DNA from: Gemmatimonadota bacterium
GTDB taxonomy: Bacteria > Gemmatimonadota > Gemmatimonadetes > Gemmatimonadales > GWC2-71-9
Reading direction: 5' to 3'
Assembly (NCBI GenBank): GCA_039586365.1
Contig: JBDHKN010000037.1
Coordinates: 10,846-74,845, forward strand
Length of the DNA stretch: 64,000 nucleotides
Part shown: one piece after another, positions 46,574 to 63,453 of the stretch
How the letters are laid out: each line of letters begins with the position of its first letter
How positions within the stretch are numbered: position 1 is the first letter of the stretch
Made by a program: the position numbers and the translations under genes
The notes under the pieces: model-generated
Told to the model about the DNA's origin: nothing
Seen by the model: the letters and a program-made list of their open reading frames with translations, nothing else
Databases searched by the model: none

Positions 46574-46975
46574 GTGACTGACACCTTCGCAAGTCTCGTG
46601 CATGCTTTGGCGGATCGCTACTCCGACGAGCGCGAACTCGGCGCCGGTGGCAGGGCAACTGTCTATCTCGCCGAGGACCTGAGACACCATCGCAAGGTGG
46701 CCGTCAAGGTGCTGCGCCCCGAACTCGCAGCGGCCATCGGCGCAGAACAATTTCTGCGTGAAATCGGGGTCACCGCCGGACTGACACATCCGCACATCCA
46801 AACGCTTCACGACTCCGGCTCTAGCGCCGGTCCGCCGGTCCGCCGAGTTTCTGTACTACGTCATGCCGTTCGTAGAGGGAGAATCGCTAGGGGACCGACT
46901 GAATCGCGATACACAGCTCCCCATCGACGACGCGCTACGCATCACAGAACAGGTTGCGTCCGCACTCGACAGGCT
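46574..46975 (+). pseudogene. Ser/Thr kinase N-terminal remnant, frameshifted and truncated
   Basis: ELGAGGRATVYLAED..VAVKVLRPE; CGCCGGTC tandem repeat at 46825-46845; FLYYVMPFVEGESL continues in another frame; ends before HRD. Confidence 0.85.
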
Positions 46976-47028
46976 ATCCTTTGATCTGCAGGTTTGACCA
47001 CAACGACTGAAAAAGGCAAAACGGACTG

Positions 47029-51518: not shown

Positions 51519-53192
51519 ATGTCCTTGTTCAAGAATCGTCCCCACCATCTGCTCGGCGCCGCGCTGCTCGCGGTCTCGCTCTTGGCCGGCACGTCGTGCG
51601 GTGCAGGTGAGGAGCACTTCGACGTCGTCGAGGCTACCATCACCGAGATGCAGCGCGCGATGGAGGAAGGGCGCGTTACCTCGCGTGAATTGGTCGAGGC
51701 CCACCTGCTGCGTTACGCTCTATACGAGGAGCGCGTGAACGCGGCGATCGCGATCAACGCGAACGCGCTGGCGGAGGCGGACCGACTCGACGAGGAGCGC
51801 GCTGAAGGGCGCGTGCGCGGCCTGCTACACGGCATCCCCGTCGCACTCAAGGACAATGTCCACACCACCCACATGCCGACCACCGGAGGCGCGCTGGCCT
51901 TCGAGGGCTTCGTCCCTCCGTACGAGGCCACGTTGACGGCTAACCTCCGTGAGGCTGGTGCCATCATTCTCGCGAAGACGGTGATGACCGAACTGGCAAA
52001 CTACATCGCGTCAGGCATGCCCGGTAATTACAGCGCGGTTGGGGACTTCGGCCTTAACCCGTACGACCCCCGCCGTGATCCGCGGGAGGGCCGCAACGAC
52101 GGCCGCCCCGTGATGGGCACGGGTGGCTCGAGTTCCGGCATCGGCACCGCGATGAGCTTCTGGGCCGGGAACGTGGGTACCGAGACCTCGGGCTCGATCC
52201 TGTCGCCGGCCAACGCGAACATGCTGGCGGCGATCAAGCCGACCGTCGGGCGTGTGAGCCGCTATGGCGTGATCCCAATCACGGCCGATCAGGACATCGC
52301 CGGCCCCATGGCGCGAACCGTCACCGACGCGGCGATCTTACTCGGGGCCCTGGAGGGTGCGGAGCCCGATCCGAATGACGCCGCAACGCAGCGTTGTGAG
52401 CCTCCGCCGAACGGAGATTACACCGCGTTCCTCAGGGCCGACGGGCTGCAGGGGACCCGCATCGGCATTCCTAGAGCCTCGTATTACGACTCCGTTCAGG
52501 TCCCCGGAACCGATCGGTTCCGCGGTGGGCTGTCGGATGAGGGTAGGGCCCTGATGGCCGAGGTCATCGAGATCCTCGAGGCACAGGGAGCGACGATCGT
52601 CGATCCGGCCGACATCCCGAGCGTGGTCGACCCCGATGCCGAGAACAACCTGCTCGTAAACGGACGTAGCAGCGTGCTCAGTTACGGCATGAAGCGGGAT
52701 TTCAACGCGTGGCTCGCGACGCTGGGCGAGTCCGCACCCGTCAAGACACTGACGGAGCTGCGCGAGTGGAACCTGGCTCACGAGCAGGCTGGCGCGCTCA
52801 AGTATGGTCAGGCCCGGCTCGATGAATCCGACGAGATCGATCTGGAGGACGACCGTGCCGAGTACGAGGCCGATCGCGCGCGGGACCTGCGCCTGAACGG
52901 CGAGCACGGGATCGACGAGGTGATGACCAACCTGGAGTTGGACGCGCTTCTATTCCCGGGGTCGAGCGGCGCCGGCATCGCGGCCCGGCCTGGCTACCCG
53001 ACCGTGATCGTACCATTTGGTTTCCTCGAATCCGCCGGCGGCACACCGATGCCGGAAGGGTTCGACGCGAAGCCACGGCCCTTTGGCGTTAGCTTCACCG
53101 GGATGGCGTGCAGCGAGCCTCGGCTACTCGAGCTGGCTTATGCGTTCGAGCAGGCGACGCAGCGACGGGTCGCGCCTCCCGGAATGCCGTAG
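51519..53192 (+). CDS. Amidase signature family protein (secreted/lipoprotein)
   Basis: LHGIPVALKDN, GGSSSG, VGTETSGSI, IKPTVG, GPMARTV. Confidence 0.93.
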   Translation: MSLFKNRPHHLLGAALLAVSLLAGTSCGAGEEHFDVVEATITEMQRAMEEGRVTSRELVEAHLLRYALYEERVNAAIAINANALAEADRLDEERAEGRVRGLLHGIPVALKDNVHTTHMPTTGGALAFEGFVPPYEATLTANLREAGAIILAKTVMTELANYIASGMPGNYSAVGDFGLNPYDPRRDPREGRNDGRPVMGTGGSSSGIGTAMSFWAGNVGTETSGSILSPANANMLAAIKPTVGRVSRYGVIPITADQDIAGPMARTVTDAAILLGALEGAEPDPNDAATQRCEPPPNGDYTAFLRADGLQGTRIGIPRASYYDSVQVPGTDRFRGGLSDEGRALMAEVIEILEAQGATIVDPADIPSVVDPDAENNLLVNGRSSVLSYGMKRDFNAWLATLGESAPVKTLTELREWNLAHEQAGALKYGQARLDESDEIDLEDDRAEYEADRARDLRLNGEHGIDEVMTNLELDALLFPGSSGAGIAARPGYPTVIVPFGFLESAGGTPMPEGFDAKPRPFGVSFTGMACSEPRLLELAYAFEQATQRRVAPPGMP

Positions 53193-53202
53193 CGGTCCTG
53201 GC

Positions 53203-53338
53203 GGTATTGTCAAGCTGAGCTCCTGCGGGTCCGCTCCTTCGAAGCTTGGAGTGCGGCTACGGGCATCTGACAATCGCGCACCAGCGATCGCCAACGACTA
53301 CCTTAACTCACGTCCCATCGCGTTAAGATGACAGTACC
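53203..53338. mobile_element. MITE copy 2, inverted relative to copy 1
   Basis: Ends GGTATTGTCAAGCTGA / TTAAGATGACAGTACC; its reverse complement shares GACGTGA(A/G)TTAAGGTAGTCG with copy 1. Confidence 0.7.
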
Positions 53339-53344
53339 CTTACT

Positions 53345-54304
53345 GTGGGTGAACGCCTCATGCCAGCTACCTCTGTTCCACGCCCGGCGGGAAAGACCCA
53401 GACCTTCCTCGCCATCTTTCTCCTGGCGGGGTGCTCCCCCTCCCCCTCGCCCTTCGCGAGCGAGGATCTTCGCAGCTTCTATCCAGGGGTGCCGAGGATC
53501 GTGGCGGTGGGTGATCTCCACGGGGACCTGGAGGCGGCTCGGCGGGCTCTGAGCCTTGCCGGGGCCATGGACGCGGCCGGGCACTGGTCCGGGGGCCGAC
53601 TGGTCCTGGTCCAGACCGGGGACATCCTCGACCGGGGGGATCAGGAGCCCGAAATGCTGGACCTCTTCGATTCCCTAGCCGCCGAGGCCCGGGCCCGCGG
53701 GGGGGCCGTCCTCCTCCTGAACGGCAACCATGAGCTCATGAACACGTACCAGGACTTCCGGTACGTCACCGATGACGGGTTCGCGGACTACGCCGGCACA
53801 CCTCCGCCTGCATTCCCGGATTCCGCGTTCCTAGCGCTGGACGCCGCGCATCAGGGACGGGCCGCGGCCTTCCTCCCAGGGGGACCGATGGCCCGGCGCC
53901 TCGCCCGGCGGAACACGGCGGTGGCGGTGGGAAACACTCTTTTCGTCCACGGCGGGATCCTCCCGGCCAACGTGGATCTGAAACTGGATTCCCTGAACGC
54001 ACGGATCCGGGCATGGCTCCTGGGAGACGCCCCCCAACCCGAATGGATCCGGGGCGACGAGAGTCCAGTCTGGAACCGCGTGTACTCCAATGCGCCGGGG
54101 CAGGGCGCCTGCGATACCCTTTCGAACGTCCTCGAACGACTGGGCATGGCCCGGATGGTGGTGGGGCACACCGTCCAGCGGACGGGCATCACCGCTTTCT
54201 GCGGAGGGAGGGTTTGGGCCATCGACGTGGGGATGGCCCGGCACTACGGTGGCCGGCCCGAGGTTTTGGAGATCCGGGAAGACGTCGTTCGAAGCCTGAG
54301 GTGA
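53345..54304 (+). CDS. Metallophosphoesterase (Shewanella-like phosphatase), lipoprotein
   Basis: GDLHGD, GDILDRG, GNHE, FVHGG, VGHT, IDVG motifs; LAGC lipobox. Confidence 0.92.
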   Translation: MGERLMPATSVPRPAGKTQTFLAIFLLAGCSPSPSPFASEDLRSFYPGVPRIVAVGDLHGDLEAARRALSLAGAMDAAGHWSGGRLVLVQTGDILDRGDQEPEMLDLFDSLAAEARARGGAVLLLNGNHELMNTYQDFRYVTDDGFADYAGTPPPAFPDSAFLALDAAHQGRAAAFLPGGPMARRLARRNTAVAVGNTLFVHGGILPANVDLKLDSLNARIRAWLLGDAPQPEWIRGDESPVWNRVYSNAPGQGACDTLSNVLERLGMARMVVGHTVQRTGITAFCGGRVWAIDVGMARHYGGRPEVLEIREDVVRSLR

Positions 54305-54437
54305 GGAGCCCCTCAGGGTACTACCTCAGAGATGCATTGGCCGGTGGCGTGACAGGTTGGACATGAAGCAGTAAGCAGGCGGGGCCGAACTCGCGGCTGG
54401 CCAAACGGAGAAAGTGACGGCCACTCCACACGCAAAG

Positions 54438-54650
54438 CTAGAGACAGAACGCCATCCCCCATGCATTGTCCTCTGGGGGGAGCTTACATCTGTTGGGGGA
54501 ACAGCAGCCAGGGCCAGTACTATGGCATACCGCATCCTTCGTCAAGCAACGGGCTGTCGGGGCTGTTGGCTCCATGCACCCTGTGGTCGTAGGCGCAGCA
54601 AACATCACGCTGAGTATGAGAGCCAAGAGTACTATTCGCGTCCGTTTCAC
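54438..54650 (-). CDS. Secreted six-Cys knottin/conotoxin-like peptide
   Basis: Signal peptide then C-x6-C-x6-CC-x4-C-x13-C; GTG start at 54650 (or TTG at 54662). Confidence 0.65.
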   Translation of the reverse strand: MKRTRIVLLALILSVMFAAPTTTGCMEPTAPTARCLTKDAVCHSTGPGCCSPNRCKLPPEDNAWGMAFCL

Positions 54651-54942
54651 GGAGTCTTCCAAGCACGGTACAACGTCAAGTTGGCCTGGAGGTGTCAGAG
54701 GACCGTCAACACTTGTAGCTCAGATGTGTAGCCAATTCACCTGCAGCCTTGTGGGATTGCCAAGCAAATTGGGCCGAACTTGCGCCCGGCCCCAATACAT
54801 AAAGCCCCGAGCGCCCCGAGACGCCCGGGGGACCTGCGCTGACCCGAAAGACATTCCTTCCTGGTGTTAGACGGCTCCAGGCATCAAACGCAAAAGTGAC
54901 AACGCTACCAATGCGAACGCGGTCGTCAACTGGGGGGAGTGG

Positions 54943-55578
54943 ATGCGACCGGGCGCCGCTTCGAACGAGGGATTTCTCGCGCCCGGGGAATCTCTCCGGG
55001 ACGTCATCCACCGCGATGAGCAGACTCTCCAAAGAGTGAAGGTAGAGCCGGAGCGCATCGCTGACCACATGGAGGAAATCATCGGCAAGGCCTGCCGTAT
55101 CGAACTGGCCGATCTTAGGAATGGTGGCTACGGCAACCATAGAGAGAAAGTGCGACAGTGGCACTGCTCTACGTGTGGGTGGCAATCGCGTATTGGCGAT
55201 GAGAGCGATTGGGACGGACGGAATTGCCCGCGCTGTGGGGACAAGCTTCGTAGGCGGTTCACGCGGGCACCGTGGATTGTAGTTGACGGCAGATGGAGAG
55301 TCACAGGATTCGACGTGGTAAAGATGGGTCACCAGGAGTGTCCGTTTGAGGATGTACGAGGCGTTGCCTGCGATTAGTACAAACTGCCAAGTGATTGGAC
55401 CCATGGATCTCAGGACCTGGCGATCACCAACATTGTCAGTGGAGCCGCCCTTGGTGTTCCCAAACTGTCAATTCACCTGATCCGTGACCATCACTTCTTT
55501 GAGGGTAGTGTCCCGTATCGTGTCGATCCTGAACTGGCAGTTGCGGTTCTGGAAATACGAGAGCCGCTGCGGGGCTAG
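54943..55578 (+). pseudogene. Hypothetical protein with Zn-ribbon insert, split by an in-frame TAG at 55375-55377
   Basis: MRPG..S..GFL...GHQECPF, then after the TAG the same frame gives ...HLIRDHHFFEGSVPYRVDPELAVAVL. Confidence 0.7.
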
Positions 55579-55641
55579 ATGTGTGGTTGGGGTTAGTCGC
55601 CGTCCAACACATTGGTAGATGGTGGAACAGGAGGCGAGATC

Positions 55642-56058
55642 ATGACCGATATGTCGGAGTTCCGCCACCTAGCGGGATTGACCACAACTCTCAAGGTCTT
55701 TCTCGGGTTTTACGTTGCGATAGCAGCAATCGGCCTCTGGTCCGGCTGGTTGGAAATCGATCTTTTGCGGCGGATCGCAGATGGTGCAGTTGTCTCTGAG
55801 AGCGAAGCTGCGGCAAATGACTCGCGGCAAGCACTCATCGGCGGGCTTTACCTCCTCGTCTGGTTGGTCATAGCGGTTGTCTTCTTGCGGTGGACGTATC
55901 TATCGAACAGGAATGTCAGAGCCCTGGGTGCTGATGGTCTAGAGTTCACTCCCGGCTGGGCTGTCGGATGGTACTTAATTCCGATTGCGAATCTGTGGAA
56001 GCCCCACCAGGCTCTGAAGGAGATCTTCAGGGCCTCGCATCCCGACTTCCCCCTCTGA
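55642..56058 (+). pseudogene. DUF4328 membrane protein, 3' truncated
   Basis: FLRWTY..NRN, TPGWAVGWYLIPIANLWKP; stops right after this motif at a repeat junction. Confidence 0.7.
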
Positions 56059-56066
56059 GCTTAGCA

Positions 56067-56135
56067 AATCCAGCGGTACGGCCTGCCAAGTATTTGCAGC
56101 ACTCGGCGGGAAAGCACCACGCCCGGCGCGGGGCC
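56067..56135. repeat. 69-bp upstream element, copy 2
   Basis: See 45344-45412. Confidence 0.75.
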
Positions 56136-56228
56136 GTTCCGCCGTGATGGCCCTCATTGCTTGACTGCCCAGCGTCGCTGCATCCTATTACGGGCGCATC
56201 GCTCGACAACACAACTGGCGGATCTATC

Positions 56229-56522
56229 ATGGAGACCGTTCTCTTAATCGTGGTCGCTGCCGGTGGACTCGTTGGTGTTGGGGTCCTCGGCGTCTTTGGT
56301 TTGACCCTGGTGGACCGACTCAAATCGGCGCCGACCGATTCCAGAATGCTCCACCAGAAGCTCGCTGATCTTGAGCGGCGGCTGATGGAGACAGAAGAGC
56401 ACCTGGCGCAGTTGTCTCGGTCCAACGAGCAGATTCTCGAACTTGACGAGAGACTCGAATTCGCAGAGCGCCTTCTTCAGCAGATACGGAACAGGGATAG
56501 GCTCCCGCCTACTAACTCCTAG
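56229..56522 (+). CDS. Single-TM coiled-coil hypothetical protein
   Basis: ELDERLEFAERLL motif; paralog of 10915-11238. Confidence 0.75.
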   Translation: METVLLIVVAAGGLVGVGVLGVFGLTLVDRLKSAPTDSRMLHQKLADLERRLMETEEHLAQLSRSNEQILELDERLEFAERLLQQIRNRDRLPPTNS

Positions 56523-56640
56523 TACGAACCGCTCCAGCATCGCTCAGACTGCCGTCCGATCGTCGGCTTCGTGGGTGCCACGGGTATCGGCCTGGTCATC
56601 GGAAGGACGATCCCGTGAAGAGCCCATTTCCCATCGTTGT

Positions 56641-56870
56641 TTGCTGGCCCACGAGGCCCGTTTGCCGGTTCACAAGCGTCGCTTGCAGCGGTGCACCCGA
56701 CGTTCGCAACCATACCTCCGCCGAGTGCAACCTTCCAGCGGGTGTGTGCAACGGTACAAACCGCACGGACGGCCTTGTATGTGTCGTTTGCAGCGTTACA
56801 CAGGCGTTGGGCCGATTTTCATATGGGTGTTGCGGGCCTGCAAACATCGTTGGTGGCTCGGTATGGCCAC
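56641..56870. repeat. Degenerate 21-bp-period repeat tract
   Basis: TTGCAG/GTGCAA-like cores at 56641, 56662, 56683, 56704, 56725, 56746, 56788 and 56830. Confidence 0.6.
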
Positions 56871-57042
56871 GCTTTTCCCGGCATTTCCTGAGTCGCCGGC
56901 CATATGTCGTGGTCTTGCTGGCGCGTCCTCCGGTGGAAGACGTGCGATACCGCGGAGTGTGGCCGGCGGTTCACGTTGGTTCCCCCATTCACATCTCACA
57001 AGGAGGTACCCTATGCCTCGGTTCCCCCGAACCGAGCCAGAG

Positions 57043-57648
57043 ATCGATGTCCGCTCTGTGGTCTATGTGTGAATCAGCAGCGGCCTGTTCCGGCGACATG
57101 TATGCGGGCGTGCCGAGTGCAACACCCTCCGTAGTCAACTGCTGACGGCCTGTGGCTTCACTCGCAACCTTGGCAACGCCAAAGTCAGTCACCAATGCGT
57201 GACGTTCTGACAAGAGCACGTTGTCTGGCTTGATGTCCCTATGCACGACTCCGTGCTGGTGGGCGTGATCGAGCGCGTCAACGACGTCTTTCAGGATCCG
57301 GACAGCCGCACCGACAGGCAGTTCACCCTCCTTCGCCAGCTTGTCCCGCAAAGACTCGCCTTCGATGTACGGCATCACGTAGTACAGAAAGCCGTCAGCT
57401 TCACCGGAGTCTTAGAGAGGCAGGATGTGAGGGTGATGCAGATTGGCCGCGATCTTGATCTCTTGGTGGAACCGCTCGGGACCCAACGCGGCTGCCAGTT
57501 CTGGACGAAGGACCTTGACCGCGACCTTGCGTTCGTGCTTGCGGTCATGTGCGAGGTAGACCGTCGCCATCCCACCGCTACCGAGCTCTCGCTCGATCCG
57601 GTGGCGGTCAGCCAGCGCAGCTTTGAGGCGGTCCAGAATGTCGGCCAC
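57043..57648 (-). pseudogene. Ser/Thr kinase pseudogene (in-frame TAA at 57412-57414; truncated after DHRADI)
   Basis: ADILDRLKAALADR...HILPL*DSGEADGFLYYVMP...HRDIKPDN...DFG...GTPAYMSPEQ. Confidence 0.9.
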
Positions 57649-57676
57649 AGGGACGGCTCCCGATTGGCGACCAAGC

Positions 57677-57708
57677 TAAGGTATGGGTTGTTGGCAGGGA
57701 GGGCCAGA
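57677..57708 (-). promoter_or_regulatory. Conserved kinase promoter motif TCTGGCC-N18-TACCTTA
   Basis: Same motif and spacing at 58444-58475 and 63224-63255. Confidence 0.65.
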
Positions 57709-57882
57709 TTGGGCGGCATTGCGTTGTGGTGACGCGTACAAAGCCGCATTGAGTGGGACGCCGGCGAGTTAAATAACCATCAGGCGTCCGAGGTGAGATT
57801 CGCGCCAGTCACCCCACGCCTCCAGTTGAGGATCCCAACGAACTGAGCCTCCGGCCACCCCGGGGCGATTCGCTATCTGTGC

Positions 57883-61699: not shown

Positions 61700-63199
61700 T
61701 CATTGCCTCTCATTAGGCCGGGCAAGCTCCGTTCTCGCTCGATCAATATCAGACATCAGGGCTGGGTCTAAATCAGTGCGGTGGCTCAGAAGGGAGAGGT
61801 AGCGAAGGTAGGCCCGGACCGCGCCTTCGACATCTCCCACAGCAGTGGCTGCCGTAGCCTCGGAGAGGTAGCTTGTGATGAGAGCTTCGGAAGTTTCTAC
61901 GAATTGAGAGTGAGTCGAAGGCTGCGGGTATTCTGGGCTCAGATCCAGAAAGACAGCAACGAACTCGCGGTCCCGCACACTCAGGCTGTCCCGTAGCTGC
62001 CATGCTCGTCGAGCACCACGCTCGGCCAGGGTGCTGTTGCCCATCAGGGCACCTGCCTGGAGAAGGCCCACAGCTGCAGGAGCGAAGGTAGGGAATGAGT
62101 CAAGTACCTGTTCGCACAGGTCACTTGCTTCTCCGTAGTCCCCATTCAGCAACATCCCTTCGACCAACTCCAAGTATGCCCGCGCCCACCTCGGCGAGAA
62201 CGGCAGCACTGCGATAGCCGTGCGCTGGTGAGTCGGAGTGGACAGACGCTCTCGCACCTAAAAGCCAATGATGACCGCAATCACTGCGGCCAGGCCGCCT
62301 ACTGCGGCCAGGAGCCGCACCGGCGGCTTGGACCTAGCTGCGACAGTCGAAACCGAGATCGTCACTTGCTCGGTGGTCAGTTCCGCTCCCAACTCTTCTG
62401 CTGTCCGATGCCGATCCGCCGGAGCTTTCGCCAGAGACTTGATGATTGTATCCACCACGGTCTCGGGTACAGAAGGCCGCAGTCCCGTCACCTCTGGTGG
62501 CGCTGACGCAATGTGCTGATGGACGATGCTCTCGACCGTCGGACCAGTAAAGGGTGGTTCACCCGCCAACATCTCGTACAGCACGCATCCAAGCGCGTAG
62601 ATGTCGCTCCTACCGTCCAACTCCCGTTCACCGCTCGCTTGTTCGGGACTCAGGTAAGCTGGCGTGCCGATGGCGATCCCTGTCTCCGTGAGCCTCGCTT
62701 CTCCCGCTTCCTCTATAGCGCGGGCGACGCCAAAGTCGGCCACAACTGCGTGTTTGGCTTCGAGCAGAATGTTCTCGGGTTTGATGTCTCGATGTATGAC
62801 ATTACGGTCGTGCGCGAAACCGAGCGCGTCGGCCACCTCGCCAGCGATCTTGAGAGCATCCTCGATAGCAAGCTGCTTCTCACGCTTCAGACGATCCCGG
62901 AGCGACTCACCCTCCACATAGGGCATCACGTAGAACAGGAACCCGTCGGCTTCTCCTGAGTCCAACAGCGGCAGGATGTGAGGATGGTTGAGGTTGGCGG
63001 TGATCTTGATCTCGCGCAGGAAGCGGCCAGCACCAAGTGATGCAGCAAGCTCAGGACGGAGGACCTTGACGGCAACCTGCCGTTCGTGCTTTGAGTCCTG
63101 AGCGAGGTAGACGGTGGCCATCCCGCCGCTGCCCAACTCACCTTCTATCTGGTAGCGGTCAGCCAGTGCAGCTTTGAGGCGGTCCAGAATGTCGGCCAT
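61700..63199 (-). pseudogene. Membrane Ser/Thr kinase with TolB_N/TPR C-terminus; in-frame TAG at 62258-62260 and apparent internal deletion; kinase domain itself intact
   Basis: Full kinase motifs (GSGGMA, VAVK, HRDIKPEN, DFG, SPEQ, SDIYALG); GF*VRE; AIAVLPF jumps straight to TPR-like helices. Confidence 0.85.
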
Positions 63200-63223
63200 T
63201 CGACGACTCCTCTGGGTCCGGTA

Positions 63224-63255
63224 TAAGGTATGCCTTGCGGCTGGAGACGGCCAGA
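63224..63255 (-). promoter_or_regulatory. Conserved kinase promoter motif TCTGGCC-N18-TACCTTA
   Basis: Matches 57677-57708 and 58444-58475. Confidence 0.65.
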
Positions 63256-63453
63256 CTGGCGGAGGCAAGGAGTGAATGGCGTGGGCTATTGGAGTCTTCG
63301 GCGACCATGGGAAGATTAGGAGGATAGTTACGGCACTCATGTAAGGGGAGGGGGGAGCGGTGGTCACGGTGGCAAGGGAGCGGTAGACTCCCGACGTACA
63401 CGACACACCGACCAGCTATCCAAAGTCGAACGCACGAAACGGAGCGAGCGATC

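Follow-up and report, generated by a model that had tools for sequence, protein, structure and literature searches.

Research on knottins, the peptides that carry an inhibitor cystine knot, has dealt almost entirely with animals, plants and fungi, and the examples named in the available text of PMC8005815 come from fungi, plants and animals. Loop a in these peptides has a length of 3 or 6, with a bias to 6 in knottins whose Cys III and Cys IV are adjacent, according to the part of PMC2238874 open to us. The KNOTTIN database lists bacterial knottins that were predicted from sequence and have no experimental structure (PMC5753296, accessible text), and a literature search for the phrase 'bacterial knottins' returned that paper only. 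A preliminary description of the locus reported here had called the knot spacing uncommon in bacteria, a remark that needs the caveat that bacterial knottins are already on that list.

Small lipoproteins with a tethered disulfide domain include RcsF, MliC, the entericidins and the receptor-blocking lipoproteins of phages. In promoters controlled by SARP activators the repeats are 11 bp apart, with the 3′ repeat 8 bp away from the -10 region, the upstream repeat over the -35 (PMC10936776, in the sections available). We did not find a lipid-anchored single-knottin family or a TTGAC box described in the literature that we covered, chiefly papers available without a subscription. The portions of PMC13418204 and PMC6262176 that are available contribute nothing on the family reported here.

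Here we describe a gene in a window (the whole stretch of 64,000 nucleotides that was analysed) of a Gemmatimonadota genome. It is an ORF on the minus strand (54438..54650), recognized from its sequence and its homologs, that runs from a GTG start at 54650 to a TAG stop at 54438 and encodes 70 amino acids. Residues 1-24 (54579..54650, minus strand) read as a signal peptide with a basic n-region, a hydrophobic core and a polar c-region ending in PTTTG. On the same strand there follow Cys25 (54576..54578), which is the predicted lipid-attachment residue (+1), and a linker of residues 26-34 (MEPTAPTAR, 54549..54575) that resembles the tethers of the genome's other predicted lipoproteins. The rest of the protein is a six-cysteine domain that ends in Cys-Leu (54441..54548, minus strand), a predicted inhibitor cystine knot on the basis of PDB matches to the family profile and of weak fold matches. 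With cysteines at residues 25, 35, 42, 49, 50, 55 and 69, the spacing is C-x6-C-x6-CC-x4-C-x13-C and the loops are 6-6-0-4-13. The features listed in the preliminary description are all present as it gave them: the basic N-terminus, the hydrophobic signal, TTTG|C, the short linker (here of 9 residues) with its final R, and the Cys spacing. The gene stands alone, with a plus-strand metallophosphoesterase gene on one side and small plus-strand ORFs, including one for a DUF4328 protein, on the other.

It had also been suggested that annotation could miss such a gene, and indeed the exact sequence of the window protein is absent from a collection of 15 billion proteins, as are the paralog described below and four of the seven genome-derived relatives that were looked up. 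The family exemplifies the small genes that are often overlooked by gene callers.

The Cys spacing by itself is no better than chance. In the six frames of the 5.4-Mb source genome a loose six-Cys pattern occurs 67 times; a tighter pattern is found in 24 frames, and a signal with a [GAS]C start in 114 small ORFs. These last two features meet in only 2 ORFs, the window gene and its paralog. A reversed-genome control contains 14 tighter patterns, 51 signal and [GAS]C starts and 0 coincidences. The tight Cys pattern and the signal therefore coincide twice in the genome and never in its reverse, which places the gene beyond chance, and we are practically certain that the ORF is a real gene.

The paralog (G000:C30:749-964, where G000 is the source genome) is 51% identical to the window protein and keeps all 7 Cys and the same C-L-stop end; the two genes have ~70 nt of upstream sequence in common. 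A HMMER search of 1.84 billion representatives found two further homologs, P0004 (62%) and P0005. An iterated profile of 8 rows gave matches at E<=0.001 in 16 same-family genomes and 19 same-class genomes, out of 400 searched in each set. Inspection left intact members in 8 and 13 of these genomes respectively (two are common to both sets), spread over three families; scoring was limited to about 15 candidates in each genome, which makes the genome counts lower bounds. The other profile matches were short two-Cys relatives, unrelated lipoproteins, a frameshifted copy (L045) and a five-Cys relative (L046). The final alignment has 33 rows, two from the source genome, 29 from 19 other genomes and two from protein databases. 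L045 and L046 are not in it, and neither the short two-Cys tails (L031, L032/L048, L047, L050, L052, L053 and L066) nor four other proteins (L049, L067, L068 and L069) were counted as members.

Searches in other directions added little. The 33-row profile had no match in 7 same-genus genomes, one of which (G003) carries the frameshifted L045. A word-indexed protein search with the single window protein gave no match, and one with alignments returned only proteins already aligned. The single-protein search of 60 relatives gave chance-level matches only (5 of its loci were inspected), a tblastn search of phages and plasmids gave chance matches only, and a genome-contig scan yielded one spurious frame (L029). 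Scans of metagenome contigs and of viruses found no relative. Two sediment runs, X1 and X3, contain short stretches of DNA from the locus and the paralog, none of which spans a gene. Atlas matches for the family are all at or below 0.80, and the Atlas contains no model for it.

All members share one architecture, a signal peptide, Cys(+1), a short linker and a C-C-CC-C-C domain, and the only columns of the 33-row alignment that are at least 90% conserved are the Cys residues and the start Met. A genome can hold up to 5 copies, some of them in tandem; in one genome the five copies form a pair and a triplet. Eight close pairs, chosen by hand and pooled, give pN 0.19, pS 0.42 and a dN/dS of about 0.36 (0.35 in the Cys domain). 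The preliminary description had asked for homologs that preserve the frame and the Cys with dN/dS<1, and the 33-member family, evolving under purifying selection, supplies them. Comparison of the window gene with its paralog shows a conserved signal (pN 0.14, pS 0.34, with the same amino acid at 18 of 24 codons) and rewritten loops; we do not claim positive selection here, since the loop values (pN 0.45, pS 0.43) come from one divergent, gapped pair near saturation. Most of the family tree is unresolved, stars marking 4 of its 30 branches, and it gives no information about where the family arose or about a transfer from eukaryotes. The gene is real, and the family to which it belongs is undescribed in the literature that we covered.

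We consider it very probable that the domain adopts the inhibitor cystine knot fold. The window protein has six Cys, a loop a of 6 and adjacent Cys III and Cys IV, as the loop lengths of knottins require, and loop a is 6 in 31 of the 33 members. Beyond Cys(+1), 29 members have 6 Cys and the other four have 8; none has an odd number. An even count is what disulfide pairing predicts, although the observation is to some extent circular, since six-Cys proteins were what the profile picked out and the five-Cys L046 was left aside.

The single domain had 0 matches in the PDB. With the family profile the matches deepen as rows are added, from a best E of 0.015 (4 rows) to 0.0033 (8 rows) and 1e-6 (33 rows). 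Small Cys peptides make up 14 of the 15 matches to the 4-row profile. The 33-row profile matches 79 sequences at E<=1, and the best 60 of these 79 are small cysteine peptides, nearly all of them knottins to judge by their names. E-values of Cys-rich profiles reflect Cys spacing, overstate kinship and do not prove common descent. In Pfam, Toxin_12 matches 11 of the 33 members at E<=0.1, and the window protein alone is below every cut-off, its single match being Toxin_7 (E 0.31 and 11.8 against 27 bits). AlphaFold2 models have low confidence (pLDDT 56.6 from the single sequence, 55.7 from four rows) and were made without a disulfide read-out. The 5 rows that a Foldseek search returned for the four-row model, omega-Aga-IVB at E 3.0 and asteropsin A at E 6.5 being two of them, are not significant, and in a comparison with 48,161 chains SOTI-III was the only one with Z>=2, a match within noise (Z 2.0, rmsd 2.1 Å over 33 residues). 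The single-sequence model matched nothing in the structure comparison.

The predicted knot is not that of a conotoxin. Conotoxin precursors of the O-superfamily (framework VI/VII) have a propeptide that ends in a basic cleavage site, and here a K or R stands before Cys I in only 3 of the 33 members. The Pfam models Conotoxin and Toxin_18 leave the window protein unmatched, and each of them finds three of the 33 members, with E-values of 0.012-0.017 and below its cut-off. By the propeptide site and the Pfam scores alike, the family is not a conotoxin family.

Judged from its sequence, the protein probably carries a lipid anchor at Cys25. Cys(+1) is present in all 33 members, G, A or S stands at -1 in 32 of them and the hydrophobic stretch scores at least 2.3 in all, so that with the basic n-region the signal has the features of a lipoprotein signal. 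The lipobox is atypical, which speaks against the anchor; its canonical form is [LVI]-[ASTVI]-[GAS]-C. The window protein has TTGC, and in the family -3 is Thr in 17 of 33 members and Leu in 1, with Pro at -2 in 12; among 161 other predicted lipoproteins of the genome, -3 is L, V, A or I in 120 and Thr in 9. The genome encodes the lipoprotein machinery, with two copies of Lgt and with LspA. A second Lgt-like domain (G000:C51:52860-53525) lies inside a 707-aa frame and could matter for atypical lipoboxes. There are two VKOR genes and four DsbA-like matches, two of the latter beside or in frame with VKOR; DsbB was not found in the source genome.

A linker of the pattern C..D/E..P is seen in 18 of the 33 members and in 50 of the 161 other predicted lipoproteins. 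Basic residues occur within the last four linker positions in 10 of 33 members, inclusive of the three that have K or R directly before Cys I. The net charge of the mature chain ranges from -10 to +4, with a median of -2 and a value of 0 for the window protein, and is positive in 7 of 33. We also observed predicted lipoproteins of 42-53 aa that combine a similar leader with a C-x7..10-C tail, often GSNTC-like (L031, L032, L047, L050, L052, L053, L066 and one on contig C40 of the source genome). These form a separate family of small lipopeptides, without the promoter box described below. A further exported-looking Cys-rich ORF of ~110 aa, with a CC pair and CxxC-like motifs, lies on the minus strand near position 294 of contig C78 and is unrelated.

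Upstream of the gene there is a probable ribosome-binding site, GGAAG (54656..54660, minus strand; GGAGG in the paralog), and further upstream a direct repeat, TTGAC-N6-CTGAC (54694..54709, minus strand). Its 11-bp period makes it a predicted SARP-type activator box, with a geometry like that given in the available part of PMC10936776. A -10-like hexamer, CAACTT (54678..54683, minus strand), can be proposed 10 nt past the second repeat, and the locus has no sigma-70 consensus promoter. Allowing one mismatch, 13 of the 33 loci have TTGAC-N6-TTGAC within 150 nt of the start, and in 11 of the 13 it lies at -59 to -66. This count has to be read with the facts that the box was first picked out by eye from the very sequences counted here, that it is absent from 20 of 33 and that relatives are not independent. 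Among the 33 loci the repeat occurs with period 11 only, with 0 at periods 9, 10, 12 and 13. As background, the same box precedes 31 of 4860 likely genes of the source genome, and among these genes, with one mismatch, period 11 is not enriched (31 against 40, 11, 22 and 19 at the other periods). Exact boxes number 15 in genome G693 and 10 in genome G107, against 1 and 0 for the reversed pattern. The -10-like hexamer, 10 bases past the second repeat, is weak (A at position 2 in 9 of 13, T at position 6 in 10 of 13); with that hexamer the arrangement would match the geometry of SARP promoters. In the whole source genome TTGAC also recurs strongly at periods 7, 14 and 21 (83, 69 and 44 pairs), pointing to 7-bp tandem arrays somewhere.

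SARP proteins combine an OmpR-type HTH with a BTAD domain. The source genome has six BTAD-domain genes, none with a TTGAC box upstream. A 1104-aa ATPase-TPR gene (G000:C96:30881-34192, L125) has a degenerate triple TTGAC-type repeat before its own start, and its ortholog in G107 (L119), a copy that is frameshifted in the assembly, has an exact box. The N-terminus of this regulator resembles two of the BTAD genes only by way of the G107 ortholog (tblastx E 2e-7 and 4e-5), and Pfam, NCBIfam and the PDB give no SARP call for it. On these sequence features we regard it as a candidate activator of the TTGAC box. The genes behind the boxes are mixed and share no single function. Many encode exported proteins or lipoproteins without an assigned function, and others a subtilase, a fasciclin protein, nuclease or phosphatase lipoproteins, a phosphopantetheinyl transferase, radical SAM enzymes, SSB, Uma2 and NAD kinase. 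The shared box would connect the family with a regulon of exported proteins that has not been described, in a phylum that has received little study. Five boxed loci of the source genome, before genes for a phosphopantetheinyl transferase, a PEP-utilising enzyme, a diacylglycerol-kinase-like protein and two radical SAM enzymes (C118:52897, C130:10604, C130:15861, C80:20512 and C9:95958), possibly belong to specialised metabolism. TTGAC repeats, of the GTTGAC type in G693, also precede genes for Uma2 nucleases, a ComEA-like protein, SSB and topoisomerase IB (L105, L108, L109 and L111 in G693, L121 in G107), and these may be those of another regulator, one of DNA damage.

Around 29 loci we inspected 98 neighbouring ORFs, most of them no more than 1.5 kb away, and no family recurs among them beyond close kin. 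None of the 98 is a recurring transporter, peptidase, modifying enzyme or immunity gene, although unidentified ORFs could hide immunity. The window gene lies between left and right partial copies of a dispersed non-coding repeat, the first part in its downstream flank (54327..54402, plus strand) and the second in its upstream flank (54760..54831, plus strand), which overlap by 30 nt. This repeat has 19 merged loci in the genome and ends in a GC-rich hairpin; there is no Rfam match in 53000-57500, and the one match to an IS91-type (Y2) transposase is elsewhere in the genome and not linked to the repeat. The C30 paralog has a full tRNA(CAT) on one side and, on the other, a 41-nt copy of that tRNA's 5′ half (L001:284-356 and ~1090-1130), an arrangement that looks like the scar of a small insertion. 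Two members from another family, L070 and L072, are divergent from tRNA(CAT), and a tRNA lies within 1.5 kb at 4 of 28 other loci. The five-Cys L046 (genome G249) is flanked by attC-like sites (L046:112-251, 1368-1425 and 1803-1942) and so reads as the gene cassette of an integron. Signs of mobility are scattered across the family loci. We rejected an integron cassette as an explanation of the window gene, for which our scan gave no attC-like flanking site, in an 86%-complete genome with no integron integrase above the cut-off. Elsewhere in the window, several Ser/Thr kinase genes and gene fragments (46574-46984, 56989-57749 and 62258-63406) have almost the same N-terminus, and two are split or truncated. 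Among plasmid records one kinase of the window is closest to Gemmatirosa (57-62%, with about 45% for the others), which on this one gene makes Gemmatimonadota the probable host.

We propose that the product is a lipid-tethered knottin that binds or inhibits a protein on the envelope side, a reading whose chances we consider evenly balanced. The gene, which has its own ribosome-binding site and upstream repeat, would be transcribed alone and activated by a large SARP/AfsR-type activator at the TTGAC repeat. The protein would be exported by Sec, lipidated at Cys25 by Lgt and cleaved by LspA, and the DsbA-VKOR pathway would make the disulfides 35-50, 42-55 and 49-69 of the inhibitor cystine knot. 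Held on its 9-residue tether, the knot would present its variable loops, and paralogs with different loops would bind different targets. The most likely targets may be foreign or own hydrolases or surface receptors, and the role that of an inducible envelope guard. The fixed frame, the exchangeable loops, the expansion of paralogs and the patchy presence fit a binding module, and an enzyme is unlikely given that no surface residue is conserved.

Four other explanations have to be set beside this one. That the ORF is a chance frame opposite non-coding DNA is hardly credible. The Cys spacing alone is frequent, as the 67 frames show, and the lack of any RNA run that contains the stretch among the listed sequencing runs is not evidence either way. 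Against chance stand the paralog, 31 further homologs, the dN/dS of 0.36, the conserved upstream box and ribosome-binding site, and six relatives annotated as genes in public sets (the P0004, P0005, P0007-P0009 and P0011-P0013 clusters); the family alignment and dN/dS refute it. It is also improbable that the Cys bind a metal (Zn or Cu) or act as a periplasmic redox buffer rather than form a knot. Six Cys within 35 residues, models without visible disulfides and one locus (L062) that adjoins genes for SelR, a ferric-reductase-like protein and a molybdopterin oxidoreductase would suit such a role. The exported location in a genome that encodes DsbA-VKOR would not; nor would the absence of both a CxxC motif and a conserved His, the gain of Cys in pairs, or loop lengths that equal those of knottins as given in the available text of PMC2238874.

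The preliminary description had proposed a secreted toxin, inhibitor or binding mini-protein. An exported knottin-like mini-protein that binds or inhibits fits our results; the released toxin fits poorly, in view of the Cys25, the mostly neutral or acidic chains and the lack of a conserved Arg for cleavage. Conotoxin precursors, too, have a conserved leader and a variable mature part, and this likeness is one reason to consider a released knottin, a distant antagonist of competitors or grazing protists in the manner of an animal toxin or bacteriocin, freed by signal peptidase I at T-x-G, by proteolysis of the linker or in membrane vesicles. The atypical lipobox also obeys the (-3,-1) rule of signal peptidase I, the nearest Atlas clusters of P0004 are a spider toxin (0.79) and a conotoxin (0.78), at lead level, and SARP control is typical for antagonism genes of Streptomyces in the accessible part of PMC10936776. 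We nevertheless think release unlikely. The Arg is not conserved, as just 3 of 33 members have a basic residue ahead of the knot, and net-positive mature chains number 7 of 33 in a range of -10 to +4; no transporter, peptidase, immunity or modifying gene recurs in the 98 ORFs; release would not account for an N-terminal Cys that is free and has no partner; and scores with the CCPGW bacteriocin model reach 12-15 bits, where its cut-off is 80. Somewhat less likely again is an envelope lipoprotein of the housekeeping type, a stress-induced subunit that stabilises or plugs an outer-membrane protein of the cell itself. In related genomes the same type of leader bears short two-Cys tails, and so appears to be a general tether, and many boxed genes encode exported proteins or lipoproteins. 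Such a role sits badly with the patchy distribution, intact members being present in 8 of 400 genomes of the same family and in 0 of 7 of the same genus, and with the absence of both a conserved surface residue and a partner gene.

The tethered binder or inhibitor can be placed in a broader picture, which we offer only tentatively. It is conceivable, though on balance doubtful, that a bacterial class keeps an inducible set of true knottins that diversifies behind one unchanging lipoprotein leader and is aimed at predators, phages or competitors. STAND/SARP sensors would serve as its switch, and the whole would be a prokaryotic counterpart of a venom or a library of plant-defence peptides. If the repertoire exists, it offers an experimentally accessible bacterial knot and bears on whether the fold predates eukaryotes. 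With ~30 natural single-domain candidates of 30-45 residues, open to direct synthesis or expression, a true bacterial knot and its use are both testable.

How, then, does the family compare with what has been described? With lipoproteins of the RcsF, MliC and entericidin type and the receptor-blocking ones of phages it shares the signal, Cys(+1) and a flexible linker, and would share a small binding domain that acts on an envelope protein. It differs in having no Pfam or NCBIfam match to such families and in its predicted fold. The putative bacteriocin model NF047792 (CCPGW, NCBIfam) is also short and Cys-rich with a CC pair; it matches 3 of 12 scanned proteins weakly, far below its cut-off, and leaves the window protein unmatched. 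With no recurring cluster either, the family is not a classical bacteriocin. The predicted promoter box resembles the afs box of AfsR and other SARP promoters of Streptomyces in its 11-bp repeats with the upstream one at the -35, and, if the unit is a heptamer, in a downstream repeat ~8 bp from the -10 (PMC10936776, as far as its text is available). Its repeat is TTGAC, and it is found in another phylum, before genes for exported proteins rather than an antibiotic cluster.

Among knottins, the bacterial set of the KNOTTIN database is named without taxa or architecture in the available text of PMC5753296, and neither the window protein nor its paralog is in the protein collection. The nearest likeness is to the knottins with adjacent Cys III and Cys IV (Xt3a, DkTx/Hs1a, murinotoxin, tachystatin B, gurmarin, the asteropsins and wrightide), which have the same C-x6-C-xn-CC-x3/4-C-xn-C pattern and also a signal peptide, variable loops and, as in most members of our family, a Gly before Cys II; the best seven PDB sequences match the family profile at E 1e-6 to 1e-3. 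Unlike those knottins, the members of the family are bacterial, have no conserved propeptide cut, are mostly neutral or acidic and carry an extra conserved Cys after the signal. If that Cys does carry a lipid, a knottin tethered in this way would put the scaffold to a new use.
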